NCBI GenBank assembly: GCA_000004985.1
Contig: GG738895.1
Length of the DNA: 64,000 nt
Direction: 5' to 3' (one strand)
Source: Naegleria gruberi
Taxonomy: Eukaryota
The notes beneath the pieces are model-generated. The model was not told the DNA's origin, made no database searches, and saw only the letters and a list, made by a program, of their open reading frames with translations. Below, in pieces: positions 2 to 64,000 of this stretch (within the stretch, counting starts at the first letter, position 1; each line of letters starts with the position of its first letter). Made by a program: the position numbers and the translations under genes.

Positions 2-2551
2 ATTTCGATTCCTGTTGCAAGTGAAAGTGGAAAAGTAGAGTTCAAGTCAACCTTTCCAAAGAATACTTCAATTAGTGATGTAGTTCATGAACTTATTCAA
101 CATTCCACTTATTTTAATTTGGCCTCTGATTCTGAATTTAACAAGACAACAACTTCTTATCCATTCATGTATATTTACCATAATAGGAGAACTGCACCTG
201 ATGTGACCTTTGCATTTTTCAAGAATTTTCAAGAGAGCCAAAAGTTCGTCGTTGATTATGTGAATGAATTGTTGTGGAATTACATTTTAATTTCAGCACT
301 GGTCTATATTGGAATCTTTTCCGGATTTATCATCATGTCCAGAGTTGAAATGCAAAGAATTTCATTCATCCTAGCTCTATACAGAAAGCTGCCAAAAGAC
401 ATGATTGGTGTCATTTATCATGAAATTGATAAGAAGGGAGAAGATGTCAAGTATGAGAAGAGTAATATCTTTTTAAGACCAAAGGAATTTTCACTTGTTG
501 TTGCATTTTGCATTATTTTCATTATTGCCGCCTATTCTGGAATTATTTACTTTGAAATTTCAGAGAATGTTAGCACTTCTACTGATAATTTGACTACTGT
601 TAATCAATTATCAATTTTGATTAGAGCTGCCCACAGGTTGACCATTCGATTGGGTGAATTATTTGCCTACTTTGGATGTCCTACTGGAAGTCCAGTCAAT
701 ATTGTAGTTTCACCTAGCTATGTGGCTCAATATAGACAAGATGCAAGAGGTTTCGTCAGTTTAATTACATCCAGTTACAATGAAGTTGTTTATGGAAATA
801 ATAACAGTCAACCATTAATTGGAAGATTCTCCAAGATTGATAACATCATTAATGGACCATCCAATTGTACAGCTGATTCACCAGTTGAAGAATGTTCCAG
901 TTTACAAACCTTCATTTCAGCGTTTACAATTTCAAGTTCTCAAATGACTGAAGAATTTTTCAATCCAACTTATCAAAAATCTGATTCACTTTTTTATCAA
1001 GTTTTGAAAATTTACAATATGAATGATGTTCTTTATGAAAGATTAATGGATTTGATGAATTTATTGTTCATTTCCACTTCAGAATCATTCAAAGTTTTGA
1101 CTATTACCTTTTTTATCTTTGGAGTTATACTTTATTTATTGTTTAGTTCATTGTTATTGTATAGTTTCTTGATTTATGATAGACAGATCACTAATTTGAG
1201 ATCTTTCTTGAATTATTTACCTGTTGATTATATAGATTCAAGTGAAGCTATGAGAAATTTCATTTATTTCAACTCACTCACAATATTCAAAAAGAAAATT
1301 AAGGAAGCAAATGATGATTCATTGAGAAATGTGTTGAGTTCAATGGTAGATGGTGCTCTTCTTGTTAATGAAAAATCAGAAATTATGTTATTCAACTTGA
1401 CAGCTCAGAAAATGTTTGGAAAAGCTCCAGAAGAAGTTATTGGTTTGAAATTTTACAACTTGTTCGAACCAAGTCAAAGTGAAAAATTGACATCTGTGGT
1501 CAAACAAGTGAAATCATCGTTGACAGATCCAAACTCAAAACATGGTGAAACTTTGGAATTGGATTGTATCAGAAAGAATCAATCTAAATTTCCAGCCATT
1601 GTAAACATTTTTGCAACACGTGAAAGAGGAGTTGTCATTTATGCCTTCTTTATTAAGGACATTACATCAGAAAAGAAACAAAATGCATTATTGAACGAGG
1701 AAAAGAAGAATTCTGAAAATTTATTGAGAAACATCTTGCCAGATTCTGTTGCCTTCAAATTGAAAGCAGGTGAAACATTAATTGCTGACAAGTTTTCTGA
1801 TATCACCTGTTTCTTTTCAGATATGGTCGGTTTTACCAAGTTTAGTTCTGGAATGAATCCAAATGAATTGGTAATCATGTTGAATACAGTGGTTAACGGC
1901 TTTGATGATTTAACAGACAAGTATCAATTGGAGAAAATTAAAACAATTGGAGATGCATACTTTTGTGTAGGTGGATTGCACGGATTAAATGCTCAATCAG
2001 ATCACCCTGAAAGATGTGTTAAATTCGCAATTGACACTCTCCAAGTAATCAAAGATTACAACATTCAAAATCCACATGCACAAATCAATATTCGTGTTGG
2101 ATTGAATACTGGAAGTGTTGTTGCAGGTGTGATTGGAAGAAAGAAATTTGCCTATGATTTATGGGGTGATACCATTAATATTGCCTCAAGAATGGAATCA
2201 AATTCATTGTCAGGAAGAATTCAATTATCGAGATCAAGTTATGAAAGGGTTTATGATATTTTCGAATTTGAGGAACGTAAAATTGAAGTGAAAGGAAAAG
2301 GAATGACTCTTGCTTATTTATTGAAAGAAAAACATCATTGCAATCCAATCATTACCATTCAATCACATGATGATGAAGATGATGTGAATACTGATAATGA
2401 TGAAATTGAGGTAGAGAAGAAACCATCCATGCAAAACCTGACTGCTCACTCTCCAAATAGTGGCATTCCAAATATCACTAGAGAACACAGTTTGAATCAA
2501 CATGGCAACAATAGTACACCAAATGTTATGAGTGACACTATGGTATTCTAA
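2..2551 (+). CDS. Membrane-anchored class III adenylate/guanylate cyclase with PAS domain. The 5' end is truncated by the window edge: the frame is open from nt 2, and the track start at 119 is only a TTG.
   Basis: N-terminal hydrophobic segments and a PAS-like region (VDGALLVNEKSEIMLFNLTAQKMFGKAPEEVIG). Intact cyclase catalytic motifs: FSDMVGFTKF, KIKTIGDAYF, GLNTGSVVAGVIG, LWGDTINIASRMES. No stop codon between nt 2 and 2551. Confidence 0.85.
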   Translation: MSIPVASESGKVEFKSTFPKNTSISDVVHELIQHSTYFNLASDSEFNKTTTSYPFMYIYHNRRTAPDVTFAFFKNFQESQKFVVDYVNELLWNYILISALVYIGIFSGFIIMSRVEMQRISFILALYRKLPKDMIGVIYHEIDKKGEDVKYEKSNIFLRPKEFSLVVAFCIIFIIAAYSGIIYFEISENVSTSTDNLTTVNQLSILIRAAHRLTIRLGELFAYFGCPTGSPVNIVVSPSYVAQYRQDARGFVSLITSSYNEVVYGNNNSQPLIGRFSKIDNIINGPSNCTADSPVEECSSLQTFISAFTISSSQMTEEFFNPTYQKSDSLFYQVLKIYNMNDVLYERLMDLMNLLFISTSESFKVLTITFFIFGVILYLLFSSLLLYSFLIYDRQITNLRSFLNYLPVDYIDSSEAMRNFIYFNSLTIFKKKIKEANDDSLRNVLSSMVDGALLVNEKSEIMLFNLTAQKMFGKAPEEVIGLKFYNLFEPSQSEKLTSVVKQVKSSLTDPNSKHGETLELDCIRKNQSKFPAIVNIFATRERGVVIYAFFIKDITSEKKQNALLNEEKKNSENLLRNILPDSVAFKLKAGETLIADKFSDITCFFSDMVGFTKFSSGMNPNELVIMLNTVVNGFDDLTDKYQLEKIKTIGDAYFCVGGLHGLNAQSDHPERCVKFAIDTLQVIKDYNIQNPHAQINIRVGLNTGSVVAGVIGRKKFAYDLWGDTINIASRMESNSLSGRIQLSRSSYERVYDIFEFEERKIEVKGKGMTLAYLLKEKHHCNPIITIQSHDDEDDVNTDNDEIEVEKKPSMQNLTAHSPNSGIPNITREHSLNQHGNNSTPNVMSDTMVF

Positions 2552-13066: not shown

Positions 13067-15172
13067 ATGCTCAATACTAGTAGTAATTATTTAAAAACCA
13101 AGCACTTTGCTCATCTCTTTGAAAATCTCTCCTTTGCCAATACATTTTGCAAGGAAACTCTTGCTGATCCCTTAGGGCAATTAAACAAGACTCGACAAGT
13201 GCTGGGCTCCATGTATTCATATGTGGATTCTACACCATTGGAGAAGGCTAAATATGCCTTTGATCCTAGTAGTGGACGTTTACTTCCCACTCGACAACAA
13301 GTTTCCGAAGACTTTGATGATCAAGATGAAGAGAGAAATAATAGAAGTAATATATTGTCATCTTCATCATCATCATCTGTGGGTATATTGAAATCTGCAA
13401 CATCTGATAAGGGAGTAACATCTGATTTTATTAATTTAATTGATTATAACAGGTATTCTCGTTTTGAATTTGTGATGGCTTCGAATAGTGTTGCAAAGGA
13501 ATGTTTGAATGGAGACTTGTTGTCGAGTGAAAGTGGTGATGAGAGAGGAGTGAATGGAGTGAATGACTTGATTACTGTGGAACATTTGATGAAACAACAG
13601 GAGAAGGAACATGATTTGGATAATTTTGTAAATATACTATCTGGATATGATCTTGTAAATAGTACTAAATATTATGCACATTGTTATGGTGGTTTTCAGT
13701 TTGGAAATTGGGCTGGTCAATTGGGTGATGGAAGAGCTATTAGTATGGGACAAGTTGAAACACCATTCACAGATATGGATTCGTCTGGTTTCGAGTTTAA
13801 CAATAGTAGAAATTCCTACAATTATATCAAACCAAAGAGATTGTGGGAGTTGCAATTCAAGGGAGCTGGTCACACACCATTCTCTAGACATGCAGATGGA
13901 AGAGCAGTATTGAGATCTTCTATTAGAGAATTTTTGGGTAGTGAATTTATGGACAGTTTGGGAATTGCTACAACGAGAGCATTCTCACTTGTGAGAAGTA
14001 AGGAAAAGGCAGTCCTCAGAGATGAATTCTATGATAACAATCCAAAATATGAATATGGAGCTATTGTATTGAGAGTTGCTCCAACTTTTGTCAGATTTGG
14101 ATCCTTTGATATTTTCAATTACAGATATCATCCTATCAATGAAAAGGAAAAGGCATTGGAAGAGAAGAAGAATATCGAAGTATTGGCTCGTTATGTCATT
14201 AAGAATCACTTCCCTCATTTGTGGATTAATGGTGATCTCACTTTGGAATTGAAGGAAAAGTTTTCAAAGGAGATTGTTAGAAGAACTGCCAAATTATGTG
14301 CTGATTGGATGTCTGTTGGCTTTGTTCACGGAGTTCTCAATACGGATAACATGAGTATTCTAGGATTGACTATTGATTATGGTCCATTTGGATTTGTTGA
14401 TTATTTTTCTGAAGATTTCGTACCAAATAACAGTGATAGTGACGGTAGATATCGTTACAAGAATCAACCAGCTATTGTCTTTTGGAATTTACAAAAGTTG
14501 ATGAGAGCTTTCACACCAACACTCCTTCCAGAGGAATACTTTGCCAAAGTTTTGAATGTTTATGCTCCACACTTTGAACATTACTACTTGATGAATTTTA
14601 GAAAGAAACTTGGTTTGATTTCTTCCAGTACAATTATTGACACTTCTGAAGATGTTACCAACTTTGACATGTTTGATGGCGATTCTGAGAATTTAAGAAA
14701 TGAAGATTGGGAGCTTATTGAGGGATTTTTGGCTTGGATGAATGAGAACAGAGCTGATTTTACCAACTTTTTCAGATTATTGTCAAATGTAAAGAAGGGA
14801 GCAGAAGTTTCTCAAGAGTTACTCGATAATTTACTTCAAACAAGAATGCACGCTGATCACACTCCATCTGAAACAACTGTATCAGAGCTCAAGAATTGGC
14901 TCTCCATTTATACCAAGAGACTTGAATCTGTTCCACTCTCCGATGAGGAAAGAAAGACTCAAATGGACAAGACTAATCCAAGATACATCTTGAGAAATTA
15001 CATTGCCCAAAAGGTAATCAAATCAGCTGAAGAATTTGACTATGGTCCACTCTATGAATATTACAATGTTCTGAGAAATCCATATGATAATCATTCTACA
15101 GAGTTTGAAGAAAAGTTTGGTGGTAATGCACCACTTTCTTCTCGTTGTTTGAAATTGAGCTGTAGTTCTTAA
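13067..15172 (+). CDS. selO: Protein adenylyltransferase SelO (UPF0061/YdiU family), Cys-form.
   Basis: Hallmark motifs YYAHCYGGFQFGNWAGQLGDGRA and HGVLNTDNMSILGLTIDYGPFGF. Typical length of 701 aa. C-terminus ...CLKLSCSS. Confidence 0.85.
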   Translation: MLNTSSNYLKTKHFAHLFENLSFANTFCKETLADPLGQLNKTRQVLGSMYSYVDSTPLEKAKYAFDPSSGRLLPTRQQVSEDFDDQDEERNNRSNILSSSSSSSVGILKSATSDKGVTSDFINLIDYNRYSRFEFVMASNSVAKECLNGDLLSSESGDERGVNGVNDLITVEHLMKQQEKEHDLDNFVNILSGYDLVNSTKYYAHCYGGFQFGNWAGQLGDGRAISMGQVETPFTDMDSSGFEFNNSRNSYNYIKPKRLWELQFKGAGHTPFSRHADGRAVLRSSIREFLGSEFMDSLGIATTRAFSLVRSKEKAVLRDEFYDNNPKYEYGAIVLRVAPTFVRFGSFDIFNYRYHPINEKEKALEEKKNIEVLARYVIKNHFPHLWINGDLTLELKEKFSKEIVRRTAKLCADWMSVGFVHGVLNTDNMSILGLTIDYGPFGFVDYFSEDFVPNNSDSDGRYRYKNQPAIVFWNLQKLMRAFTPTLLPEEYFAKVLNVYAPHFEHYYLMNFRKKLGLISSSTIIDTSEDVTNFDMFDGDSENLRNEDWELIEGFLAWMNENRADFTNFFRLLSNVKKGAEVSQELLDNLLQTRMHADHTPSETTVSELKNWLSIYTKRLESVPLSDEERKTQMDKTNPRYILRNYIAQKVIKSAEEFDYGPLYEYYNVLRNPYDNHSTEFEEKFGGNAPLSSRCLKLSCSS

Positions 15173-15180
15173 TAAACTTT

Positions 15181-16743
15181 TTATTTACATTTCTCTAGAA
15201 TTTTATCGAATATTTGTGAGAGCTTTGGTACCAGATCTTCTGTGTCCAATGAATTTGTTATAATGATTTCGCAAACTCTATTTCCTAAATCCACTTCCTT
15301 GAATTTGTTAGTAATTGAGGTCAAGTAAAAATCCGCATCTAGGTTGTTATTATCATTTCCTATGGAAAGTAACGAGTTCAAAATTGTAACCTTATTTGGT
15401 GAGTCTAACTTTTTCTTGAATCTATCAACATTAGTTAATACGAGAAACACTGGTTGATTCTTGATCGATTCATTCGTAATCCAATCTTTAAATGTTGTCA
15501 AATCCTCAATAAATCTATTAGTAGTAATATCTTCCCAACAAACTAGGTCAAACTCTGAAAGAGATGCCACATAAACAAGTGCTTGGCAGCATTTCATTAC
15601 TGCAGACCATTTTTTCCTTTCGGTACGAACGCCTGCTAAGTCCATCAGAGTTATTGACTTGTCCTTGTAGGTATAAATTCGAGAAATGACTCCAGTTGTT
15701 CGTTGTTGGAATACAATGTAGTCTCTCTCGGTAGCTCTGTATTCTGAACTTGTTAATCGTTCATATTCTGAAATATAATACTCAATACAATTTCCAATCG
15801 AATAATTCAAATTCTTATAGTCGTGAATGTTATCCAAAATTTCTTTAACTCTTGAATCATGTAAAATATCATACCATGTTGCAGCATCTATCACCTTGTC
15901 ACCAATTAATTTTTCAGAAGCGTGCTTTGAGATGAAATTTTTCATTTTCTGACAAGTTGCCCAATCGAGAGCAACATCACCATTTGATTCCTGTTCTTTG
16001 AGTATTCCTTCAAAGAGAGCTCTCAATACTTCCACCAAATTTTGTTGTATGAATGTGGCTGAAAGATTAACAGCCTTCTCAGCATATTTTCCTCCAATAA
16101 TCTTTTCGCATTGTTTGAATAGAGTACTCTTTCCACTTCCTTCACATCCAAACAAGGCAATCTTGAGGTCGGAATCTTTTGGCACTTCATTGGCCTTCCT
16201 TCCAGAGAGCCATTGCAACAAGTTACTTCTCGGAGATGATGGTGGAGACATTGTTGGAGGAGTTTTTGATTTCTTATTGTTGAATGGAATATTTCTTGGC
16301 GAAGTACTTCCAGAAGATGACGATGAGCCTTCATCCATTATACCACTATTCGGAACAAGCAAATAATTAGCACTCTTAATCCCCTCGTCTGATGATGACG
16401 AAGAGGATGCTGGAGAAGCAGAGGAGTGACCCATCAATCGATTCCCAGCCGAAGTTGTCCTTCCAAAACTGACGAGACTTTCATTATTATTACTACTACT
16501 GGAAGCAGCGTTGTTGTTTGTATTTTTTCGTTGCTGTAAATTTCCAAGCGAGGGAGAAGTTGGAATGGCGGGAGAAGTGTTGGTAGAGCTTGGAATGAGA
16601 AATTCTTGGACATCTTGTTTGGTGGTTCGACTCTTGAATGATGGAAGGGAAAATTTACGTTTAGTTTTGGACATTTTTTTGCATTGAGAGTGATGAACTA
16701 TTTTTTTGAAAGGGAACTTTAAATGCAATCTGTCAAAAGTCAT
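15181..16743 (-). CDS. Heterotrimeric G-protein alpha subunit with a Ser-rich N-terminal extension. Divergent: the switch II Gln is replaced and NKxD is altered.
   Basis: G1 KIALFGCEGSGKSTLFKQ. Switch I RTTGV. G3 DLAGVRTERKKW, where canonical is DVGGQRSERKKW. G4 region LVLTNVD, where canonical is NKxD. Confidence 0.75.
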   Translation of the reverse strand: MTFDRLHLKFPFKKIVHHSQCKKMSKTKRKFSLPSFKSRTTKQDVQEFLIPSSTNTSPAIPTSPSLGNLQQRKNTNNNAASSSSNNNESLVSFGRTTSAGNRLMGHSSASPASSSSSSDEGIKSANYLLVPNSGIMDEGSSSSSGSTSPRNIPFNNKKSKTPPTMSPPSSPRSNLLQWLSGRKANEVPKDSDLKIALFGCEGSGKSTLFKQCEKIIGGKYAEKAVNLSATFIQQNLVEVLRALFEGILKEQESNGDVALDWATCQKMKNFISKHASEKLIGDKVIDAATWYDILHDSRVKEILDNIHDYKNLNYSIGNCIEYYISEYERLTSSEYRATERDYIVFQQRTTGVISRIYTYKDKSITLMDLAGVRTERKKWSAVMKCCQALVYVASLSEFDLVCWEDITTNRFIEDLTTFKDWITNESIKNQPVFLVLTNVDRFKKKLDSPNKVTILNSLLSIGNDNNNLDADFYLTSITNKFKEVDLGNRVCEIIITNSLDTEDLVPKLSQIFDKILEKCK

Positions 16744-17163
16744 CGCTTTGAATGTGCTCTTGGACTTTGAAATAATTGAGGCGAGAAGTTATTCGCCATT
16801 TATTATTTTCGTCTTCATTAAAAGTAATCCAACCAACATACAAACATCAATTAAAAATTGAAATATGAAAGAGTGAATGACTAAAATATCATTTTTAAAG
16901 TCAGTCAATGGAGCACACTAATTTTGGTCAGCAACTTAGTTAAGAAGGCTAGAAACTAGCTTAGCTTGTCATCAGCAATTTTCATTGATAAAATTCAAAT
17001 ACAAATTGGCGCCAAATATTAAAAAAAAAATTGATATTTTGGTTTTCTTTAAAGAAAATTTAATACATGTAACCAATTATGATTCCAATAAACGTTGTGA
17101 TTTGATTACGTGGATAGCGAGATCAAAAAATTGTCATCACACAAGATCACCACAACATTGCAC

Positions 17164-18762
17164 ATGATGGAATCAACAAAACCATCATCCGAGATGAAAA
17201 TGTTCATGGAAAAGGTTGGTCTGGATGTTTTTCAATTCATCCTTTCCTTCTTGCCTCCTGTTCCGTATTTATTTCAACTTCAGAGAGTGAGCAAACATTA
17301 TTCACAATTGTGTCAATCATGTATGGAAGAAGATTGTAGTGAATTGTATTGGGATGAAGAAGCTGTCGCTCAAATGAATGATCAGATGAAAAAATCGTCA
17401 TCAAACAATATTCCGAATACTTTGTCGAAATTATTGAAACAAGTTAGACCAGCACATAAAGATTGGGTCTTGTTCTTTAGGGATATCCTACATAAATTCA
17501 AAAAGTTGGATCGTCTGGTTTTGAAGAATATGGAATTTTCGAATGTGATCATGTATTTAATTTTTGTAGATTGGAAAGGAGATTTGAAAGAATTGAAACT
17601 CATTGAATGTGATTTCAAGGTACAAATACCATGTAGTTTTTCAAGCATGTCTCAAGGTCAAGTTGTAACACTGAGAGAAATATATTTTCAAGTGGAGAGC
17701 TTTTTGGATTGTACTTTAGACTTGGGTGACCATACAGGATTCATGACAGATATTCAGAAGTCAACAAATATTGGAAAAATTGAAAAGATCAAAATTGTAT
17801 CCAAATCGAACGGTTATAATAACGATGCTAAATATCCAAATAATGGATATGGGTTGATTCCATTTGTGAAATGTTTCCCCTCACTCAAGAATATATTCTG
17901 CTTAGTTTTCAGAAACAAATCACCTGTATGGGAATCGGTTCTTTTAATGTTTCCAGATATTGTTTTTGAACCCTTACCTAGAGAATTAACCAATAATGAA
18001 ACAAACTTGGGCGAATTTTATATTGATTACCTGTGTAAGGAATTCAATTTGAGGAAAAACAGACTAGAATTGATTCAACACGAATTTACATCTTCCAGAA
18101 CTAGAGAGAATATTCATAGTTTCTTTAGTACAATTATTGATTTCTTGGAGGTGCATACACCATTTGGTCTTGATAGTTTGATAAAGGATGTTCGTGGTAA
18201 TAATATCATTCAATTGGCTATCCTATTTACAAACTATGAAACAGTTCGATTCTTTGTCAAATACCTTACAGCACTTGAGGATAAGGATCATGCTGCTAAA
18301 GAACTCTCCCAACTCTTCTCTGCTAATAACCGACTCGATGGAAGAAATGCTCTATTTAAATGTATTTCCTCATCCTCACTTACTTATTTCGATCTGCTTT
18401 TAGAGTATGGAGTTTCATTCAATTTTCCAGATAGTGATGGAAATACAATACTTCACAGCTTGTGTATGTTTGGACAATTAGCTAAATTACAAACCTTGTG
18501 GGATAATACTTTGGGTAAAAAGCAATTGAAAGAAAAAATGTACTATTTGAATTTTAATACAAAGAATAAGAATGGTGAAACACCACTCTATCTATGTAAA
18601 AAGAATAGAATGAATAATATGGCAAACCAATTACAAACCCAATTTGAACATTATGGCATTGATTTGAGTGTTACTGATCCAGTGCCACCAGTAGCAAGCA
18701 GCAACCCAACACCAATAAGAAATGACACACCAAGCTCAGCCACGAAATGTGATATTTTGTAG
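17164..18762 (+). CDS. F-box-like/ankyrin-repeat protein.
   Basis: F-box-like LDVFQFILSFLPPVPYLFQLQRVSKHYSQLC. Ankyrin repeats DSDGNTILHSLCMFGQLAKL and KNKNGETPLYLC. First ATG at 17164; the track start is a GTG. Confidence 0.65.
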   Translation: MMESTKPSSEMKMFMEKVGLDVFQFILSFLPPVPYLFQLQRVSKHYSQLCQSCMEEDCSELYWDEEAVAQMNDQMKKSSSNNIPNTLSKLLKQVRPAHKDWVLFFRDILHKFKKLDRLVLKNMEFSNVIMYLIFVDWKGDLKELKLIECDFKVQIPCSFSSMSQGQVVTLREIYFQVESFLDCTLDLGDHTGFMTDIQKSTNIGKIEKIKIVSKSNGYNNDAKYPNNGYGLIPFVKCFPSLKNIFCLVFRNKSPVWESVLLMFPDIVFEPLPRELTNNETNLGEFYIDYLCKEFNLRKNRLELIQHEFTSSRTRENIHSFFSTIIDFLEVHTPFGLDSLIKDVRGNNIIQLAILFTNYETVRFFVKYLTALEDKDHAAKELSQLFSANNRLDGRNALFKCISSSSLTYFDLLLEYGVSFNFPDSDGNTILHSLCMFGQLAKLQTLWDNTLGKKQLKEKMYYLNFNTKNKNGETPLYLCKKNRMNNMANQLQTQFEHYGIDLSVTDPVPPVASSNPTPIRNDTPSSATKCDIL

Positions 18763-23841: not shown

Positions 23842-26421
23842 ATGAACAACAATTCCATCATTCAAAGTGATGATGTGGTGATGGAAAAACAACTCGATAA
23901 TAACAACAAAAATCTTCGGAATGAACAACAACAACAAGTAATAATTTCTCCTTCCGATAAAGATGATTGTGTTGTTGCTTCTTCTTCTTCTGTATCATCT
24001 GATAATAATACAACAACAATAGTTATTGGAAAATTGGAGGGAACACCTTGTGTGAATAATAGTAATAATAATAGTGGAAATATTGTGGTTGATCCGAATA
24101 GATTGTCACCTCATACATCATCACATCTCTCGATAGAATCGAGTCTTGAACAAAATATGGATGATTATATTGCGGATGATGATGGAAATGCATCGAATAA
24201 TAACAAAACGAAAAAACATCATCCAGTCGAATTTTTGACAAAACGAATGAAGAGTTTTTCAAATTCTGATGTTTTGAGCTTTTTCAAAAAACCATCACCG
24301 AGAAGTGCTTCACCAAATAATGTGCATGAAACTAATAGTTCGGAACTCTTATCTTCTCCCAGTGAAACAGAAAAGATTTCAACAACTCAACTATCAAAAC
24401 AGGAAAATACAATGTCAATTTCCTCTTCTTCTGTATCCTATCCTACTACCACCAAATTGATTCCACCAAAAGTGAAAAGAGAAAAATCAACAGGAAATAT
24501 CTACACTTCTTCATCTGATGATGAAATAACATCAACAATTCAACACCAGCTTCAGGAAAAGAAGAGAAAGAGTAGACAAATTCCACCACTACCTCTCAAC
24601 GAGACTAAGATAAAGAGAATTGCATTGAAAACCATTTACAACATGATGGTTCTTCAACCGAGTATTACAGATAGGGTTCTTCCTCTAATTTTGATAGATG
24701 TCAGATCTTCTGAGAAGGACTACATTTCAAAAGTTAGCCCAACCATTGGTCCCCAACACAATAGTCACAATAGTTTTTCTGTATCAGAAATGAGTAGCAT
24801 CCTTTCTTCCCAAATTGAAAGTGAACTTATATTCGATCAAATGAGGCCTCGATCAAGAAGTTCAGCTACTCCACCCACTCAACCAATAATTTCACCAGGT
24901 ACTCCCCTCGGTACAAAGGTGCCACTCCTCAATATTAGCTCTATCTCTCCAGACCAAAAATTTAAAGGTATTATGGGTAGCCCTAAATCAGGTTACAACA
25001 CTCCAGTGGCCAGTCCACTAATGAGTCCAAGAACTTCTTCACTCGGAATTTCTCAACATGTCCAATGGTCAATTCATTTCTATTTACCAGATCATATCAT
25101 TGATCATATACCAATTGATGATTTGAACAAGGAAAATGTAGCTAGTATAATTCACATGATTGAAACATCTAACACATGCATTGAGAAGGATTTGTACAAA
25201 GCCAGATTTGCTTGGAGGAAAATGTCAAATGTTGTTGTAATGGCTGGTAGCTCGAGAGATGAACACAGAGCCAAATGGCTCCTTAGAGTTTTACAATTGG
25301 AGGGGAAGTCCTATAATCTATACTCACTCCCACATGGTCTTAATTTCACTCATTTCGAAGCTAAATATCCCTTCTCCATTACTTCTTTCGATTTTGTTGA
25401 ATTTCAATTACCAACCCATATTTTCAAGAATATTTATTTGGCAAGTTATAGAGTTTTAACACAGGAACGAGGAATAGAAGTGCTCATAGCAAAGAGGTTG
25501 AACATTAAGAGGGTTTTGAATTGTGCAAAGGAATGTAAATGTGTAATACCCAACAAATTTCTCTCAGAGGACTCTCCAACAAAGCCAGTCCAAAATAGCT
25601 CTCAAACTCTCTCAAGATCAGAGAGCTTTTCCAAGACTGGAATTTCCACCTCTCAAACCCCAAAGATTTCCTATCTCCATCTTCTTCTTGATGATTTTGA
25701 TCCAAAGCACTGTTACTTTACCGCAGAACAAATGAAGGAAAGTGTCCTCTTCATTAATCAATCATTGAAAAACAATGAAAACATCTTGATTCACTGCCAA
25801 GAAGGTAGATCTAGATCAGTAACTATCATTTGCCTCTACATGATGATTAATATTGGATGGAAATTGTCATACTCATTGGAATTTATGAGATCTCAAAAGC
25901 CCACCATTTCTGTCCATCCAACCTTCCTTCTTGAACTTCAAGCCATTGAGGATTACATTAGTGACAAGATTGAAAAAATCAAAGGAAACAGCACTATTTC
26001 CAGTGATTCTCTCGACAACATGGAAGGAATGATAAAAGTTGATAGTATTCTCACCATAACAGACGATCCTGAACCTCCTGAAAGATACCTCCTCAAATTC
26101 ACACCACTGTACGAATATTCCTCCACCGATGATCTTTCCTCGGTCAGCACCAATGCATCCCCAAGAGTTTCACCTCGTCTCATCAGCAATAGAAAATTAA
26201 AGAAAAGCTCGGTAGACAAATTGAATGTCTCTTTAATTTTCAATAGGGCCAAAAGTGCCACACTATCCTTACCTGATTCTCCACTCCTTCTAGACCCCTC
26301 TACCTTATATCTTGATGATTCAGTATTGAGCACATTCTTGGATGAAATTGGACACAATGTCATTCGCCCATTCATTGAAAATTTATATTCATCCAATGAC
26401 CAATTACAGCAATTACGATAA
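23842..26421 (+). CDS. Dual-specificity (MKP-type) protein phosphatase with a long S/N-rich N-terminal region.
   Basis: Catalytic loop ILIHCQEGRSRSVTIICLYMM (HCx5R). Upstream rhodanese-like segment VLPLILIDVRSSEKDY. Confidence 0.75.
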   Translation: MNNNSIIQSDDVVMEKQLDNNNKNLRNEQQQQVIISPSDKDDCVVASSSSVSSDNNTTTIVIGKLEGTPCVNNSNNNSGNIVVDPNRLSPHTSSHLSIESSLEQNMDDYIADDDGNASNNNKTKKHHPVEFLTKRMKSFSNSDVLSFFKKPSPRSASPNNVHETNSSELLSSPSETEKISTTQLSKQENTMSISSSSVSYPTTTKLIPPKVKREKSTGNIYTSSSDDEITSTIQHQLQEKKRKSRQIPPLPLNETKIKRIALKTIYNMMVLQPSITDRVLPLILIDVRSSEKDYISKVSPTIGPQHNSHNSFSVSEMSSILSSQIESELIFDQMRPRSRSSATPPTQPIISPGTPLGTKVPLLNISSISPDQKFKGIMGSPKSGYNTPVASPLMSPRTSSLGISQHVQWSIHFYLPDHIIDHIPIDDLNKENVASIIHMIETSNTCIEKDLYKARFAWRKMSNVVVMAGSSRDEHRAKWLLRVLQLEGKSYNLYSLPHGLNFTHFEAKYPFSITSFDFVEFQLPTHIFKNIYLASYRVLTQERGIEVLIAKRLNIKRVLNCAKECKCVIPNKFLSEDSPTKPVQNSSQTLSRSESFSKTGISTSQTPKISYLHLLLDDFDPKHCYFTAEQMKESVLFINQSLKNNENILIHCQEGRSRSVTIICLYMMINIGWKLSYSLEFMRSQKPTISVHPTFLLELQAIEDYISDKIEKIKGNSTISSDSLDNMEGMIKVDSILTITDDPEPPERYLLKFTPLYEYSSTDDLSSVSTNASPRVSPRLISNRKLKKSSVDKLNVSLIFNRAKSATLSLPDSPLLLDPSTLYLDDSVLSTFLDEIGHNVIRPFIENLYSSNDQLQQLR

Positions 26422-41965: not shown

Positions 41966-43347
41966 TTAATCAGAAAAATGAAAGAAGACATCTGCAATCT
42001 TCCAAGCATTCCTAAAATTGAAATATTTAGAAATATTATGTTGATGAATTGCAATAATCAATGTATCGCTTGTTAATCCAACTTTCAAAACTGAGGTGGA
42101 TGCATCAATATTAGGAAAGAGCTGTCTCCACTTGAATTCAGTATATCTACCATCTGAGCTCAGCAAATTATTATCTCCTCCAATAAATACTGAATTGTCT
42201 CTAGTTAAAATTAGAGAATTGTATCCTCCACAGACAATATCCTGGATATTATTCAAATTAAATGAGTCTAGTATTTTGGGGCCTCTATTCACATCATATG
42301 TAAAATTAGGTGATATTCCAAATTGTTTAAAATTGAAATAGCCAAAAACGTAAATTTTTTGTGATTGTGTTAAAACTGCTACAAAAAACAATCCTGGTCT
42401 AACATCTGTCACAATTTCATGATCTAGATTTGGAACGCGAGTCCAATGGAAAGAATCGCTGGCCTCAATCAAACCATTCGCACCATAAGATCTATCTCCA
42501 ACTCCATAAAGATGGCCATTCTCAGTCAATATAAAGCTAGTATTATATGTACAATAAACTCTCTTAATCTTGTTTGGAATGTGATCGATATTGGAGACAA
42601 CCCATGAATCCGAATAATTATTAGTATTCACTCCCAGTTGACCATCTATAAACCAATCTAAATAATCCAATAATTTGTAAACCACTTACAATTCTGTCCA
42701 TATCCATACACCTTCCCCTTGTCAGTCAGCATTAAATTATGAGTTGATCCACAGGAAACATCCACAATTTTCTCTTCTTTAGTATCGAATGGTAAGGTTG
42801 TAATCTTTTTCAAATCATTTGGAATTTCACTCGTCGAGTCTGACATGTAAACAGCTCCACTACTAGTCCTGACTAATAAAAACCTTCTAAATCCAACCAT
42901 ATCCACCTCCTCATCAAACACCAATTTGTACAATACACATCCATCTGATATATACTTCCATACATATAACGTCCTTCTCGATTTACCAACCAACACAATA
43001 GAATCACCACACGAAATCTGCGTTACACGTTCATCAATTTCAAAAACCCAATATTGTGGAGTTTTTATCATCACTACAAGGCTTGATTCTCCATTTGTTG
43101 TTATTGGTCTTGAATATTCTTTTAAAACTTTTACATTCTCCAGATGATGATGATTAATATCATTGCTAATCATGTTGGTAATTGTTGTAGAATGATCAAC
43201 TTCCATTCCTTTCATCAATCCATTATTATCGGTATTGATCACGAATTCTTTTTGTTCGAGCTGGAAGATTTGATAGCCAGGTTTTGATGCTAAAAGATTG
43301 TCGTGCTCTTTTTCGTTGCATGGATTGCTGGCTGATCGTGTGAGCAT
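41966..43347 (-). CDS. RCC1-repeat (beta-propeller) protein, two exons.
   Basis: Exon 1 is 43347..42690, then a 32-nt GTAAGT..TTTAG intron at 42689..42658, then exon 2 at 42657..41966, for about 449 aa. RCC1-type repeats VSCGSTHNLMLTDKGKVYGYGQN, NGHLYGVGDRSYGANG and CGGYNSLILTRDNSVFIGGDNN. Confidence 0.65.
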
Positions 43348-44234: not shown

Positions 44235-45725
44235 TTATTGACAAGTGCTCATTTCAATAAGAGCTTGAATTTGTTTGGTGATTTGGCTAATGTTGGATTC
44301 CAAAGCAGTTCTGCAGCATTGTGAAATGCACATGTCTCCGAATTGATGCTTCAACTTGCTAATAATTGCTCGTAAATTGAGGTCCTCAAATAATTCATTG
44401 GGCATGCTGATCAACAGAATTGCAATCACTATGGATTTGTTTCTATCCTTTTCAAATTCCATAATTTCCCTAAATAATTGGTATTCCTTTAAATTAGTAT
44501 ATATAGTAGTAATCTTGTCGTTCCATAAAGTCTTAATCAATTCATACTCTTCAGATTTAATATCTTTGTCTTCGTTGATTAATAAAGGCTCTACCAAGTC
44601 AAAGATGACAGGACTCAGTACTTGGACAATACTTTCAAAGAGAATCGTTTGAGTGAGGGATTCATTATTGACCTGATTCATTTTGGTAAAGTACACCTCA
44701 GTAATATTCCTAGTGAGGGTCATCAACTTGACAAGAGTTTCAGACCATTTTTCCTTGACAACAACTCTATAACAAATGGCATTTTCTGGCTTTTTAACTG
44801 CTTCTTTTTTAATTACAACAAATCCTCTAGATAATCCTGTTGAAGAATCTATAGGATACAATGCCTTCCACAATAAATCAAGTTTCACCCAATGAGGTGG
44901 ATATTTAAATCTTGCAACATCTAGAACTAGGACCATATCATTTTCTGCATTATAGGCAGCCAAAGGAGAAAAATGTCCACTGCAATATACATTATTTCAA
45001 TGTAAATTTCAATGAAAAATAAAACCTACGTTCCAGTTTGTCCCAAAGTAGATCGATCATAGCTCACAACAATAAATGATGGATCATTATCAATTTTTGA
45101 CAAATCATTTGATTCTATTGAATCAATAATGAATTTCCTAAATTCCTCCAATGAAGAATCCTGAGGTCTATAAACATGACAATCAGCTCCATTACATTTA
45201 GCCAAACAAGCAAATTGTCTCAAAGTAATTCCCTCCTTCTTTACAACTTCCAATGGAACACAACAATCAAAAAACTCCTCAGTAAACCATCTCCAAGGAT
45301 ATTTCCAAACTCTCTTCGGATCAATTTTCAAAGCATTCATAACATTTACAAGTGTTCCCAATCCACAATCTTTAAAATCATCAATCATTACCAATTAATA
45401 TTATTAATAATACCATTAAATCATCAAACATACAAGAAGGCTCAGCTTGTGTATGAAATTGTTCAATTAGCGGAAAGAACGAATGAGTATTTCCTTCCAT
45501 CAAACTCTGGGAAAATAATTTCCTTCCTTCGAGTGAGGAAAAGGCGACCAAATGCGAAGGTAATTCTCTTTGATAAAAGCCTTGTTCTCTCTTTTCCGAT
45601 TGTTTTGAATCCGATAATACTAATGATGAAGATGTTGTTGTATTTAATGATAAAGTTGTTGTTGAAGGAGATAATGATGATGAACAACCCTTTTTCTTAC
45701 ATGACGATCCACATTGTGCGCTCAT
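44235..45725 (-). CDS. PCS: Phytochelatin synthase (glutathione gamma-glutamylcysteinyltransferase), three exons.
   Basis: Exons 45725..45434, 45369..45030 and 44979..44235. The introns are 64 nt (GTATGT..AAAG) and 50 nt (GTAGGT..GCAG). The catalytic triad context is conserved across the splice junctions: AEPSY|CGLGTL (Cys), QTGT|GHFSPLAAY (His), [16 protein letters not shown] (Asp). About 458 aa. Confidence 0.8.
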
Positions 45726-45856: not shown

Positions 45857-48800
45857 TTATTTAAAAGGTTTTTGTGCTTGTCTAATAATCATGTATAAAT
45901 GTGAATCTTGGAATGAATCATTCCTATCATAGATTGATAACAATTTTTCAATTAATTGAATTGGATCAAAATTGCATTGAGATGGTGGTTTTAACAGTGA
46001 GTGATAATATTTTGAATTGTAAACAATTTTTCCATTTTCATCAATATCACCTCTTCCAAAGGCTTCCATTTCTATTATATTATGAGGTTTTGGGGCCACG
46101 GATAAGAAATTGCAAATAATTGATTGTTCCCATTCATTCTTGAAATATAATGAACATGAAAGAATGAATAAATCTGGAAGGAATCTATTAAGTTTTGCAA
46201 TTCTAGTCACTCTATCAAATTGTGAATTCACAGAAGGGATAGAAAGTGAAAGATTATCATATAATAGTTCATCACTGATATGAATTCTTCTACTGAATCT
46301 ATTCAATGTGAAATTAATTCCTTTTCCATTTTCATTAATAAATTTAAATATTTGATTGGCTTCGTATGGACATATTAAAATTATATAATTATCATTCAAG
46401 GAGTGAACAAACCAATCTATTGGTCTCTTGTAATAATCAATTTTAGAGTCAATTGTTGAAATGACAACATTTTTCATACTTTTGGTTGCATAAATGTTAC
46501 CATTCCAAATATTAGGGAGATTGTAAAGTGCAAAAGTATCAGATAATAATTCTTTAACATTTAACATGGTGGAGATATTTGGCTTGAATCCCATAATTAG
46601 CAATTTCAAATTAGTGTCCAATTCAGGAATACAGGGTTCTAATTGAGGAGGTCTAAATACTTGCTTTTCTTCTTCTAATTCATTTTCCAATTCTCTTTCT
46701 TGTTCTTCATTCAGTGTTTGTGAGAATATTTCCATAGTATTGGTTGACAGTTTTTCAATAATTTTTGAAATATTACTCTCAAATATTGTACAAAGATTCT
46801 TTGTGTGTAACGATCTAAAATGTAATTCTTTCAATTTAAATATTTGTGATAATAATTGCTTCTTTCGTTCTAATCCATAAAATGATTGTAATTCAAGTAT
46901 TTCATCTTCAATATATTTGTCATAGTATTGTTGAATAAGTATTGATTTTCCTAATTCTTGATTTAACCATAGTTTATGACTGTAAATCAATCCTTGGACA
47001 GCCCATTGTAATAAATGATCCATTTCCATTTGTTTTGTATTGAAATGTGTCCAGTTAATTATTTCTCTTGTATTGACAGTATTATTCTCTGATAATTTCT
47101 TAATATGTGAATCAACTTCTTTGGATGCCCAGAATGAAACGGTGTGTCCATTCACAGAACATAATTGTCTCATTCTCATGCATGCTTGAACGAACCTTTC
47201 ATTTGAAAGACCATTTCCTAAAGTAACAGCAGCTCTTGTACTTTCTGGAAATTTAATATCCGTCCCTCTTGTATGTACGTCATCTATGTATGTAACACAT
47301 TGTTCTAACTTGTTTTTATATGGAGACAAATCAAAATTAGTAACATGATTATATCTATCTATGACAGTGAGTTCATCATTATCATTAAAATATATTGCAG
47401 CATGGATTTCGTTTGGATTTGAAATTTCTAACCAATATTGTGCCAATTCTTCATTTGTCATTTCTAACATTAGTGCTCCAACGTCTAGTAATACTCTTGT
47501 TGTTTTTTGTGAATTAGCAATAGATTGAATAATGTCTTTGCATGATTGTTCATTTGAAATAACGTGATATTCTTCATTCCTCAAAATGAATGATTCAACA
47601 TTTTTAGAAGTATCTAGTAATTCTTCTAATTCATTTGATTGAATCGAAATTGGTAATAAAAATGATTTTGTGCCACTGAAACCGCTTGATTGATGATTCT
47701 TTTGATTACTTAAATTCCAAGATGAGGAAGTCAACTTTTTAGGAAATTGTTTGCATTCTTTTGGAAATACACACTTATTTAAATAAAAGTCAATAGCTGC
47801 CATTGAATATTTAAAAAATGGAAAAACTACTTCCATTTTTTGATGATAATCGGATAAGTTAATATTTGATAAAGATTTCAATTGTTCAGGTATTTGATTC
47901 TGACCTTCTTCGACCCATTTACAATATTCCTTTTCTGGGTCATCCAATGATAGCAATTCTTCGAATATATATTCAAGTTGAGAATTATCTAATCCACTAT
48001 AATAATAGCTTAATAATGTTAATAAAATTGCGATATCTGGATGACCATATTCAGATCTTTCAGATGGTACGTCTTTGGCTCTAAATGGAACGGCAATTGA
48101 TCTGTTAAAACCAACTCCATAATTAACTCTCCATCTTCTTTCTAATACAAGCTCCAAGGTTCCATACGCTAATAATCCTCTTAGTATTAATAATGATTCC
48201 CACTGGCTTTCTTTAGAATATTGTCTAATTAATTTCAATGTAGAATCATTAATTTCTTCACATGTCAAAAATTGTTTAAATAAAAGTCTATGTTCTGGCT
48301 TGATAGAAATGAAAATTCCTTTCAAGTTTCCATCAAGAATATCATTAACAATATTTTCTACAAGCAATTCAAAAGCTTTTGAATCTAAAATTCTCAAATG
48401 AGGAAATGAATGTTCAAAATTATTCATTTCCCTAAGTTCGACACAAGACGACCCAAATGAATCGAATAAACCTTTAGAATGTTTCTTAATTGATCTAAAT
48501 ACTTTTTGTAAAACATTCCAACGTTGATCTCTACCATCAATTTTTAATTGATTTCCAATTGTATAAATTAGTTGATACCTGGCATGAAGGATTTCATCTG
48601 ATTCATCTAATAAATCTCTACAATTATTTTCTAACCAATCTTGAACTTTAAATAATTGTTGAAAAAGGTCCGATTTAGATTTGATAGATTCAATACATTT
48701 CAATTCAAATGATAATCTATATTCGGGAACTGTGATGAGAACGCCTCTAGCTTTCATACAATTCGAATATAATGTTTGCAGTAACTCACAATCTAGTACT

Positions 48801-54800: not shown

Positions 54801-54842
54801 AAACAAGTCACACAAGAATGTGTCTAGAAATTGTGTTGACAT
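45857..54842 (-). CDS. Giant protein of about 2940 aa from an uncharacterised family, with a GEGKSS P-loop-like motif (DUF3638/DUF3645-like). Rebuilt from four ORF-track fragments.
   Basis: Exons 54842..51563, 51522..50504, 50436..49045 and 48997..45857, all in phase. The introns are 40 nt (GTAAGT..AAATAG), 67 nt (GTACAA..TTATTTTCAG, weak donor, least certain) and 47 nt (GTATGT..TTGCAG). The NMGEGKSSVIIPM motif opens the last exon. Confidence 0.6.
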
Positions 54843-62913: not shown

Positions 62914-64000
62914 TTATTGGAATGGAGAAACTGATGACCTAGGGGATGATGTTGCAGGAGAATCTGGAGTGTTATTGCCAGCAGAAGTACGGGAAGTTAA
63001 AGGAGCATCCGAGGTACGAATATCTGTCATTCTGGATCTTCTGTGTTGTAACTCTCTGAAGGAGACTTCTGATTGAATGACATCTTCAGAGGAGGTGGAA
63101 ACGAATAGTGGACTCACAGATTTACGAGGTGTATCAATTTCTATATTCATTTCTTCTCTCAATACTTCCACAACTTGTTTGTAATGATTACTAGTGACAA
63201 ATCTTTCATAAGTGTCGATCATTAGGAGGGAAATTACTCTTTGAATAGGGTCGAAAATGTCAGCTCTAATGCTGTCGTCATTTTCATTTAAAAGCTCCAC
63301 TTCAATTTCCTTTACCATTCTTCGAGAGAGGTTTAGTTCTCTCTCAGATCCTAAGCGTAAGTACTCGTCATAGATCTTTCTTCCTTCCTCGAGTTGTTTT
63401 GAAGAATCCATTAGGGCTTTATATTCCTCAACACGTGCCCAGAAAAGAATATTCTCCTCAGAGTGTTCCAGCTCACAATAGGAAACAAAATAGGGTCTCA
63501 GTTTTTCGCTCGATCTAATAACTTCCAACTCTACATTAACTTCCTTATTGTCATCATTGCTAATATTGGAAGGAATATTGAGTGAGGAATTGTACTTGTA
63601 CTCAATTGTTATATCATCAACATCACGTTGCTTTAGAATACAAATCTTATTTGATACATTGGTATCCAGATATTTGAACAGGTATTCCATTAGATCTTTT
63701 TGTGAACCAAAATCATCTTTGAACCACTCGAAAATCTTGGATACATAAATGGTGTTGGTCTCCAAATCAATTCTAGTCTCTCTTTGGATGTATTCTCTGG
63801 TGGCCTTATCAATTTCACTTTCCATATTTTCCAAGGTGAAGAGATTAAACTTTGGAGAACCCATATCGGCTCTGAAAAGACAAAAATGGATTCTTGGATC
63901 AAATTCTGGAATTCTCAAATTACTGATAGCGTTGAGAAGTGGATTGTCATCCTCACTTGATGTCTTGAATAACTTTTCCCTAAACGATGAGGATATCGAG
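62914..64000 (-). CDS. RGS-domain protein. The 5' end lies beyond the window edge: the frame stays open to nt 64000, and the track start at 63918 is a TTG.
   Basis: RGS signature HSEENILFWARVEEYKALMDSSKQLEEGRKIYDEYL. The Ser/Thr/Pro-rich C-terminus ends at 62914. Confidence 0.7.
   Translation of the reverse strand, partial: SISSSFREKLFKTSSEDDNPLLNAISNLRIPEFDPRIHFCLFRADMGSPKFNLFTLENMESEIDKATREYIQRETRIDLETNTIYVSKIFEWFKDDFGSQKDLMEYLFKYLDTNVSNKICILKQRDVDDITIEYKYNSSLNIPSNISNDDNKEVNVELEVIRSSEKLRPYFVSYCELEHSEENILFWARVEEYKALMDSSKQLEEGRKIYDEYLRLGSERELNLSRRMVKEIEVELLNENDDSIRADIFDPIQRVISLLMIDTYERFVTSNHYKQVVEVLREEMNIEIDTPRKSVSPLFVSTSSEDVIQSEVSFRELQHRRSRMTDIRTSDAPLTSRTSAGNNTPDSPATSSPRSSVSPFQ

Follow-up and report, generated by a model that had tools for sequence, protein, structure and literature searches.

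A 64,000-nucleotide stretch of Naegleria gruberi contig GG738895.1 (the window) encodes on its minus strand an atypical G-alpha subunit that we judge to be probably a functional, lineage-specific Naegleria paralogue, predicted to bind nucleotide, to be deficient in hydrolysis and probably to be locked in the GTP-bound state. By alignment, this protein has none of the three intrinsic determinants of GTPase activity, with Gln in place of Arg178, Val in place of Gln204 and Glu in place of Gly42.

Gene, fold and family membership

The ORF is intronless and contains no internal stop codon (Table 1). Its 520-residue product matched the Pfam G-alpha profile PF00503 with 183.6 bits (E = 7.2e-54; curated cut-off 48.8 bits) over profile positions 16-331 of 333. 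In an AlphaFold2 model (pLDDT 90, pTM 0.88), the G-alpha domain consists of a Ras-like domain and an inserted all-helical domain, the same two-domain fold as in canonical G-alphas such as N. fowleri Galpha7 (PDB 6ne6) and Gi-alpha-1. With this model as the query, Foldseek returned Gi-alpha-1, transducin and AtGPA1 with TM scores of 0.8-0.9, and the top matches were without exception activated-state G-alpha structures. The profile match and the predicted fold bear out an earlier note on this DNA, which had called the ORF a G-alpha gene. Canonical G-alphas share only 22-30% identity with the Naegleria protein.

Elements common to canonical G-alphas and the Naegleria protein are GxxxxGKST, the Mg-binding Thr, DxxG, the switch II sequence RxERKKW, the G4 Asp and the SE[FY]D..ED..NR core. 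Features of canonical members that are absent from the Naegleria protein are the Arg finger and the catalytic Gln, the residue equivalent to Gly12 as well as Glu43, both the N and the K of NKxD, both the Cys and the Ala of TCAT, and an N-terminal Gly/Cys lipidation site or long alphaN helix. Moreover, the C-terminus of the Naegleria protein is about six residues shorter and poorly conserved, and the protein carries a low-complexity N-terminal extension of 160 residues. Translation probably starts at Met24 rather than at the first Met of the ORF, because Met24 directly precedes the N-terminal motif common to all orthologues and because in N. fowleri and N. lovaniensis the protein as annotated begins at the equivalent position; annotated orthologue proteins start 5-12 codons ahead of this motif.

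Table 1. Positions of the atypical G-alpha gene, its motifs and neighbouring signalling ORFs in the 64-kb window
Feature	Coordinates	Strand	Remarks
Longest ORF, atypical G-alpha	15181..16743	minus	520 aa; stop codon counted in coordinates
Probable real CDS	15181..16674	minus	497 aa; starts at Met24, MSKTKRKFSLPSFKSR...
Conserved motif RKFSLPSFKSR, residues 29-39	16627..16659	minus	Sole alignable block of the extension in four orthologue lineages
Ser/Asn/Pro-rich low-complexity extension, residues 40-185	16189..16626	minus	Fast-evolving
G-alpha domain, residues 187-513	15205..16185	minus	Pfam, AlphaFold2, Foldseek
P-loop GCEGSGKST, residues 199-207	16123..16149	minus	GxxxxGKST intact; Gly42 to Glu, Glu43 to Gly
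Switch I QQRTTGV, residues 346-352	15688..15708	minus	Arg178 position is Gln346; Mg-binding Thr181 (Thr349) kept
Switch II DLAGVRTERKKW, residues 368-379	15607..15642	minus	DxxG kept; Gly202 to Ala; Gln204 to Val372
Val372 codon GTT	15628..15630	minus	
G4 TNVD, residues 437-440	15424..15435	minus	Replaces NKxD; guanine-specifying Asp kept
G5 TNSLD, residues 496-500	15244..15258	minus	Replaces TCATD; Ala326 to Ser
PAS-cyclase ORF	119..2551		
Dual-specificity phosphatase ORF	23842..26421		
RGS-domain ORF	62914..63918		Pfam RGS E=2e-20

Catalytic and nucleotide-binding motifs

Motif states were read from two alignments that agree with each other, one of 153 sequences made with MAFFT and the other to PDB 6ne6 made with phmmer. 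Numbering of the conserved positions follows Gi-alpha-1; the key positions were also checked against the alignment to 6ne6 and against the numbering given in PMC9283941. The switch II sequence DLAGVRTERKKW aligns without gaps with DVGGQRSERKKW of Gi-alpha-1 and with dvggqrterkkw of N. fowleri Galpha7, anchored by D, G, R, E, R, K, K and W. Because this alignment is ungapped and well anchored, Val372 can be assigned to the Gln204 position, in agreement with the earlier note, and a search of switch II in the alignments for a Gln shifted by one or two residues found none. The DLAG of this switch II resembles the DTAG of Ras. The alignments also confirm the proposed alteration of NKxD to TNVD, with the Asp retained; among the 152 nearest sequences, the change of Lys270 to Asn is specific to the clade. 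In the 105 nearest canonical G-alphas, conservation reaches 90% for Arg178, 96% for Gln204, 93% for Gly42, and 93% and 99% for the N and the K of NKxD, respectively.

Two further motifs had been read as present. The P-loop indeed preserves the GxxxxGKST pattern, but it is not canonical, as Gly42 (the equivalent of Ras Gly12) and Glu43 of the canonical GAGESGKST have given way to Glu and Gly. The switch I Arg had been equated mistakenly with the Arg of RTTG, which occupies the Lys180 position in every alignment, where other G-alphas commonly have Arg as well. Two residues upstream is Gln346, at the position of the catalytic Arg178, equal to R181 of N. fowleri Galpha7. The possibility that Arg348, the Arg of RTTG, stands in for the Arg finger was also considered but dismissed, since Arg is the family consensus at this site (RxRTTGI) and the orthologues carry Lys.

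The slow GTPase that the earlier note had predicted is thus supported more strongly than claimed, given the additional changes of Arg178 to Gln and Gly42 to Glu. Each of the Gi-alpha-1 substitutions Q204L, R178C and G42V, like their equivalents in Gs and Gq, lowers kcat 10- to 100-fold or more. That the protein is "locked on", as also suggested, is a reasonable prediction from such mutant biochemistry, although a sequence cannot show it. With the G-alpha fold and the residues for the phosphates, Mg2+ and the guanine base kept, the protein would load GTP; with no hydrolysis at a useful rate, it would adopt the GTP (on) conformation constitutively, and its output would then not be timed by a GTPase clock. 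The G5 change, which is of the Ala326-to-Ser type, may in addition speed up nucleotide exchange; A326S leads to faster GDP release.

Other substitutions bear on how well nucleotide would be held. Losing both the N and the K of NKxD may lower nucleotide affinity; Cdc42 carries TQxD and shows normal GTP binding. The Glu at the Gly42 position adjoins the gamma-phosphate and could work against GTP or prevent the active conformation from forming. In Gi-alpha-1, G42R puts the activated state out of reach, and plant XLG2, which also has G42E, binds GTPgammaS 100-1000 times more weakly. In N. fowleri Galpha1, hydrolysis of GTP is slowed by a non-canonical P-loop (TAQ) (PMC9283941).

Conservation among orthologues and the N-terminal region

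In its GC content, the window resembles Naegleria and N. gruberi. The nearest relatives of the protein are other Naegleria and Willaertia G-alphas. Syntenic orthologues occur in N. fowleri (FDP41_012998), N. lovaniensis (C9374_005365) and two metagenomic Naegleria-like lineages, the convergent SelO neighbour being conserved among them; the orthologous ORFs, five in number, are all intact, and the N. fowleri and N. lovaniensis proteins are annotated just as hypothetical or uncharacterized. Over the G-alpha domain, dN/dS is 0.109 (N. fowleri-like versus N. lovaniensis), and a 97%-identical metagenome contig differs in this domain by three synonymous and no non-synonymous substitutions. Exact-sequence searches with the 520- and 497-residue forms of the protein and with the adjacent SelO protein gave no match. 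All ten nucleotide- and Mg-binding residues (G40, G45, K46, S47, T48, T181, G183, D200, G203 and D272) are invariant in four orthologue lineages, compared with 31.6% of domain columns overall, an outcome with a chance probability of about 1e-5 if sites are assumed to be independent. The switch II sequence RxERKKW is invariant across the same lineages, too. Judged by this pattern, the nucleotide-binding residues are under selection.

Neither Arg178 nor Glu43 is present in any of the orthologues, and G4 reads TNxD in all of them. Orthologue P0004, which is syntenic, retains both Gln204 and Gly42; at these two positions N. fowleri and N. lovaniensis carry Asn and Cys, and the N. gruberi protein carries Val and Glu, its Val codon GTT being three changes away from CAR. 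The question of whether orthologues share the Gln-to-Val change, raised in the earlier note, thus has a divided answer: N. fowleri and N. lovaniensis have likewise lost the Gln, with Asn in its place, but it is kept in P0004. An N. lovaniensis paralogue and a Willaertia protein have R178Q, E43G and N269T in common and retain the Gln. Read from the aligned sequences, the orthologue series is one of stepwise decay of catalytic residues. A neighbour-joining tree groups a wider Arg-less set together, a grouping that long-branch attraction may affect.

Sequence conservation is distributed unevenly over the protein. Columns around the P-loop, switch II and beta4 are invariant to 60-67%, compared with 0-20% in the alpha4-beta6 region and alpha5. 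Residues 40-185 of the N-terminal extension cannot be aligned between orthologues and show repeat-length polymorphism relative to L001, and a Pfam search of the extension gave no match. Neither candidate start is followed by a Gly2 or an early Cys for lipidation. The AlphaFold2 model contains no long alphaN helix, only a nine-residue helix of low confidence ahead of beta1, and the 20 residues before beta1 have a pLDDT of about 50. Since a lipidation site and a long alphaN helix are lacking and the receptor-coupling elements (alpha4-beta6 and alpha5) are the least conserved, the protein is probably not a receptor-coupled heterotrimer subunit.

The one conserved block of the extension, RKFSLPSFKSR, is basic and sits where the Gly2/Cys lipidation site usually is. 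It fits a basophilic-kinase/14-3-3-like consensus (R-x-x-S-x-P), and a regulatory role for it is speculative. The protein would probably be controlled through its expression level and the Ser-rich extension, with RKFSLP..SFKSR possibly acting as a phosphorylation, 14-3-3 or electrostatic membrane switch. Such N-terminal control would parallel the regulation of the GTPase-dead Rnd1-3 and RhoH, which are controlled by expression, phosphorylation and 14-3-3 and not by a GTPase cycle. In these pseudoGTPases of the nucleotide-binding class, the Gly12- and Gln61-equivalents are substituted and nucleotide binding is retained, as is predicted for the Naegleria protein. Rnd and RhoH belong to another GTPase family, and their likeness to the Naegleria protein is functional only, by analogy.

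Alternative readings and other atypical G-alphas

Plant XLG1-3 resemble the Naegleria protein as G-alpha homologues that lack the catalytic Arg and Gln (Rcat and Qcat), carry Glu at G42 of the P-loop and have an N-terminal extension. They are conserved and functional despite the catalytic loss (PMC8584482). The two groups nevertheless differ in origin, which is independent, the Naegleria clade being specific to Heterolobosea, and in the nature of the extension, which is Cys-rich and contains an NLS in XLGs but is a low-complexity Ser/Asn/Pro region without a Pfam domain in Naegleria. According to that part of Anantharaman et al. 2011 which is cited in PMC8584482, N. gruberi has 44 G-alphas, some of which deviate in catalytic motifs and are without N-terminal membrane-tethering residues; the motif-deviant Naegleria and Dictyostelium G-alphas mentioned there represent the same general phenomenon as the protein described here. 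A study of N. fowleri G-proteins lists 13 G-alpha accessions, of which Galpha9-13 were not cloned.

The likeness to XLG2 raises the question of whether the Naegleria protein is a decoy that is essentially nucleotide-free in vivo and, regardless of nucleotide state, sequesters G-beta-gamma, part of the set of roughly 100 RGS proteins, or both. The Glu at G42 as in Arabidopsis XLG2, the joint loss of Rcat and Qcat and the presence of an extension as in XLGs, the absence of N as well as K from NKxD, and the invariance of the residues contacting G-beta and RGS (RxERKKW in switch II, TTG in switch I) would all fit, yet we consider this reading unlikely. XLG2 has lost the P-loop Lys and has a changed DVGG, and it binds GTP very weakly, whereas the corresponding residues are invariant in the Naegleria clade, together with S47, T181 and D272, at a dN/dS of 0.11; such invariance of nucleotide- and Mg2+-binding residues is hard to explain if neither ligand is bound. 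In addition, Ras G12D and G12E-type mutants and Cdc42 with its TQxD bind GTP, and the AlphaFold2 model predicts no alphaN helix for binding G-beta-gamma. A G-alpha that still cycles, with a dedicated GAP providing the missing catalytic residues in trans and an off-step that depends wholly on this partner, appears improbable. The conserved nucleotide-binding residues and switch I/II scaffolds would permit such cycling, the RGS/GAP repertoire of Naegleria is very large and diverse (107 RGS proteins in N. fowleri), and small GTPases offer a precedent, with Rap1GAP giving an Asn to the Gln-less Rap and RasGAP giving an Arg finger. However, the variation of position 204 among orthologues (Val, Asn or Gln) suggests relaxed rather than re-specified constraint, and we know of no RGS domain that gives a catalytic Arg or Gln/Asn to a G-alpha lacking both.

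The degenerate state of several hallmark motifs and the annotation of the orthologues as mere hypothetical proteins could also point to a decaying pseudogene, as the earlier note had allowed, or to a canonical G-alpha misread through an alignment artefact that hides a nearby Gln or Arg. Both readings are effectively refuted, and we give them hardly any weight: the ORF is intact in five lineages and under purifying selection, synonymous changes alone separate its G-alpha domain from that of the near-identical strain, the switch I/II alignment to solved structures is ungapped and anchored, and the predicted fold is of high confidence. Going further, one may imagine that the protein no longer takes part in the receptor/GTPase cycle at all; it would be either a signalling scaffold permanently loaded with GTP and switched by RKFSLP phosphorylation, in the manner of Rnd3 and 14-3-3, or a switch whose off-reaction needs a new type of GAP that gives Arg and Gln/Asn in trans. 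This idea is a long shot, and to our knowledge no G-alpha has been described that works in either way. If true, the series Gln to Asn to Val would be the trace of a process in which, after loss of the Arg finger, one catalytic residue after another could be dispensed with.

The window had also been said to hold an RGS gene, two cyclase genes and an MKP gene, with a hint that they are linked to the G-alpha. The RGS, phosphatase and one cyclase ORF are present (Table 1), but a second cyclase gene was not found by Pfam and tblastn within the 64-kb window, in which one cyclase domain is detectable. We reject a functional link to these neighbours, as they lie 6-46 kb from the G-alpha gene in a eukaryote without operons, belong to huge families (about 107 RGS and about 80 cyclase genes in Naegleria genomes) and, for all three, are absent from beside the N. 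lovaniensis orthologue.

Atypical G-alphas of this type have already been noted in Naegleria, Dictyostelium and plants, so that the phenomenon is documented in outline and nothing is overturned; the Naegleria clade itself is uncharacterised. Catalytically impaired G-alphas matter in plants, where much G-protein signalling is carried by XLGs, and are essentially unstudied elsewhere. Naegleria has among the largest known repertoires of G-proteins, RGS proteins and cyclases, and N. fowleri is a lethal pathogen, the G-protein signalling of which is being explored for drug targets (PMC9283941). Orthologues with differing numbers of catalytic residues offer a natural series, already at hand, with which to ask what a G-alpha does without a timer, and N. 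fowleri FDP41_012998 emerges from the present analysis as a signalling protein yet to be characterised.

Gene, fold and relatives of the window protein

The G-alpha gene encodes an uninterrupted protein of 520 residues (the window protein), residues 187-513 of which match the Pfam G-alpha family with 183.6 bits (cut-off, 48.8 bits). Because this match covers positions 16-331 of the 333 in the profile, no intron is needed. Across the window as a whole, GC is about 33% and the ORFs are long and intron-poor; with the relatives listed below, this assigns the sequence to a Naegleria species other than N. fowleri and N. lovaniensis. The closest solved structure is Naegleria fowleri Galpha7 (PDB 6ne6; phmmer, E=5e-32); G-alphas of Entamoeba, plants and mammals rank next. 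In an AlphaFold2 model of residues 170-520, based on an alignment of 109 sequences, the Ras-like and helical domains are both formed (mean pLDDT 90, pTM 0.88), and Foldseek matched the model to G-alpha structures only (TM 0.8-0.9).

Across 1.84 billion representatives, an exhaustive HMMER scan returned only three close clusters (E < 1e-87), beyond which lay ordinary G-alphas (E ~1e-28, identity 22-30%). The close relatives comprise N. lovaniensis C9374_005365 (P0002), N. fowleri FDP41_012998 (cluster representative P0003), a 99% identical metagenomic protein (P0001) and a more distant metagenomic protein (P0004); the two from named species bear no annotation beyond hypothetical or uncharacterized protein. 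The close relatives are syntenic orthologues of the window protein: a convergent SelO gene lies directly downstream of the G-alpha gene in the window and in the genomic stretches L001, L002 and L004, and is also near in N. lovaniensis (L003), where one 704-aa gene is inserted between the two. In the window, the SelO end and the G-alpha stop codon are 8 bp apart, so the 3' ends of these convergent genes must overlap. The metagenome contig L001 (ENA ERZ929261) is 97.2% identical in DNA to window positions 14399..17466; the G-alpha domain carries only three differences, all of them synonymous, and every other difference within the gene falls in the N-terminal extension, among them a length polymorphism in an Asn/Ser repeat.

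Features of the window and a related locus, with coordinates
Feature	Location	Strand	Remark
PAS-domain adenylate/guanylate cyclase	119..2551	+	
SelO (protein adenylyltransferase)	13067..15172	+	Pfam E=2.5e-108
G-alpha ORF	15181..16743	minus	520 aa
Basic motif RKFSLP(LP)SFKSR	16627..16659	minus	conserved in L002, L003, L004 N-termini
Dual-specificity phosphatase	23842..26421		
RCC1-repeat gene over two overlapping ORFs; phytochelatin-synthase domain	41966..43347, 44235..44963	minus	
DUF6606, DUF3638, DUF3645	45857..54842	minus	four successive ORFs
RGS+DUF547 ORF	62914..63918	minus	
P0006 (N. lovaniensis C9374_004820)	L005 2001..3510		

Altered catalytic motifs in an intact gene

Motif residues are numbered according to Gi-alpha-1. 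Key positions were checked against both the alignment to 6ne6 and the residue numbering of PMC9283941, where the Arg finger of Galpha7 is R181; as a cross-check, the Arg finger and the G4 Asp are 94 residues apart in both proteins. Three alignments (MAFFT, n=153; phmmer against 6ne6; a second, n=109) were concordant and gap-free near the motifs, excluding misalignment as the source of the deviations. The P-loop reads GCEGSGKST instead of GAGESGKST (Gly42 to Glu, Glu43 to Gly), and switch II reads DLAGVRTERKKW instead of DVGGQRSERKKW (Gly202 to Ala, Gln204 to Val). In G4, TNVD replaces NKxD, retaining the Asp and losing Asn and Lys, while G5 is TNSLD rather than TCATD (Cys325 to Asn, Ala326 to Ser, Thr327 to Leu). 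The switch II Gln to Val exchange and the TNVD motif had been proposed in the earlier note, and both hold. That note also took the switch I Arg to be present in RTTG; this Arg, however, occupies the Lys180 position, where the family consensus is Arg (RxRTTGI). Switch I is QQRTTGV compared to RVKTTGI, with Thr181 retained and Arg178 changed to Gln; the true Arg-finger position is Gln346 of the window protein, two residues upstream. The corrected observation is stronger than originally stated.

Conservation among the 105 nearest canonical G-alphas is 90% for Arg178, 96% for Gln204, 93% for Gly42, and 93% and 99% for the Asn and Lys of NKxD, respectively. About 12 of the 150 nearest cluster representatives lack Gln204 and about 20 lack Arg178; in this set, the window-protein clade alone has Asn in place of Lys270. 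According to a 2021 review, N. gruberi has 44 G-alphas (PMC8584482), and passages of that review, citing Anantharaman et al. 2011, describe deviant catalytic motifs and missing N-terminal tethering residues in Dictyostelium, Naegleria and plants. A biochemical study in N. fowleri covered Galpha1-7 only and found slower GTP hydrolysis and altered RGS engagement in a G-alpha with a non-canonical P-loop (TAQ) (PMC9283941). Atypical, catalytically deviant G-alphas are thus a known kind, of which the window-protein clade is an uncharacterised member.

The earlier note had also considered a decaying pseudogene. This reading is ruled out by intact ORFs in all five orthologous genes, by a purifying pattern in the G-alpha domain between the N. 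fowleri-like and N. lovaniensis genes (dS 0.65, dN 0.07, dN/dS 0.11) and by the lack of non-synonymous domain changes relative to L001. While 31.6% of domain columns are invariant across four orthologue lineages, all ten nucleotide/Mg2+-binding positions examined (G40, G45, K46, S47, T48, T181, G183, D200, G203, D272) and the switch II RxERKKW motif are; selection therefore upholds the nucleotide pocket and the switch scaffold.

A predicted GTP-bound state and the loss of catalytic residues

Taken singly, the substitutions Q204L, R178C and G42V each lower the kcat of a G-alpha 10- to 100-fold or more; with all three determinants lost, negligible intrinsic hydrolysis is predicted, and the assignment as a putative hydrolysis-deficient G-alpha is well supported by the sequence and by its evolution. 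The G4 motif TNVD is similar to TQxD in Cdc42, a GTPase with normal GTP binding, and Ala326 to Ser speeds GDP release in Gi-alpha-1 and Gs. As the binding residues are conserved and cellular GTP exceeds GDP, a constitutively GTP-bound state would be most likely. The main alternative is a nucleotide-poor decoy resembling XLG2, which likewise carries Gly42 to Glu, lacks Rcat and Qcat, and binds RGS and G-beta-gamma without nucleotide; XLG2, however, has lost the P-loop Lys and DVGG, the counterpart positions of which are invariant in the window-protein clade. It is also conceivable that a trans-acting GAP provides the missing catalytic residues, although we know of no precedent for such a GAP acting on a G-alpha.

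The catalytic residues seem to have been lost stepwise. In every orthologue, the Arg finger is replaced by Gln or Val, its salt-bridge partner Glu43 is Gly, and TNxD is present. At position 42, P0004 retains Gly, N. fowleri and N. lovaniensis have Cys, and the window species has Glu; the corresponding switch II motifs are DVGGQR, DVGGNR and DLAGVR. In the window species the Val codon, GTT, is three substitutions away from a Gln codon. As to whether orthologues share the Gln to Val change, a check proposed earlier, the Gln is thus also lost in N. fowleri and N. lovaniensis, but as Asn, and it is kept in P0004. An NJ tree, in which long-branch attraction is possible, places the N. lovaniensis paralogue C9374_004820 (P0006) and Willaertia magna ABK040_005887 (P0084) as the closest outgroups, and both retain Gln204. 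Because both, like the window protein, have Gln178, Gly43 and Thr269 (Arg, Glu and Asn in canonical G-alphas), their sequences suggest that lack of the Arg finger extends to a wider group of heterolobosean G-alphas. In P0006 the N-terminus is likewise extended, by ~134 aa rich in Ser and Asn. On the simplest reading, a heterolobosean G-alpha lineage would first have lost the Arg finger, crippling hydrolysis, whereupon Gln204 and Gly42 might have become dispensable and drifted.

Several features argue against classical receptor coupling, namely the lack of a lipidation residue (neither Gly2 nor an early Cys follows either candidate start), the lack of a clear helix before beta1 (a Pro/Ser-rich stretch with only a short, low-confidence helix in the AlphaFold2 model), a C-terminus ~6 residues shorter than in Gi-alpha-1, and variable alpha4-beta6 and alpha5 regions (0-20% invariant across the four orthologue lineages, the lowest of the domain). 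The N-terminal extension comprises 160 low-complexity residues, rich in Ser, Asn and Pro and unalignable except for the basic motif, with an acidic E.F[LM] patch behind it; the true start is probably Met24, directly ahead of this motif. Its sequence matches an R-x-x-S-x-P basophilic-kinase/14-3-3-type consensus and, speculatively, could serve as a control point in place of the GTPase timer, as in Rnd3 and RhoH.

Neighboring genes

The earlier note had placed an RGS gene, two cyclases and an MKP in the same 64 kb. The RGS, phosphatase and PAS-cyclase genes are real; a second cyclase domain was not detected in the window. A functional link to the G-alpha gene is unsupported, as these genes lie 6-46 kb from it, belong to families that are very large in Naegleria, and are all absent near the N. 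lovaniensis orthologue. The end of a DUF547 domain lies on the N-terminal side of the RGS ORF, and the RGS ORF probably extends upstream past its listed limit, toward the window end. The successive DUF6606, DUF3638 (across two ORFs) and DUF3645 ORFs look like one giant gene of ~3000 aa, broken by short introns or frame changes. The phytochelatin-synthase domain is represented by its C-terminal part only, at the ORF start; this partial domain and the split RCC1-repeat gene suggest introns in both genes, unlike the intronless G-alpha gene.
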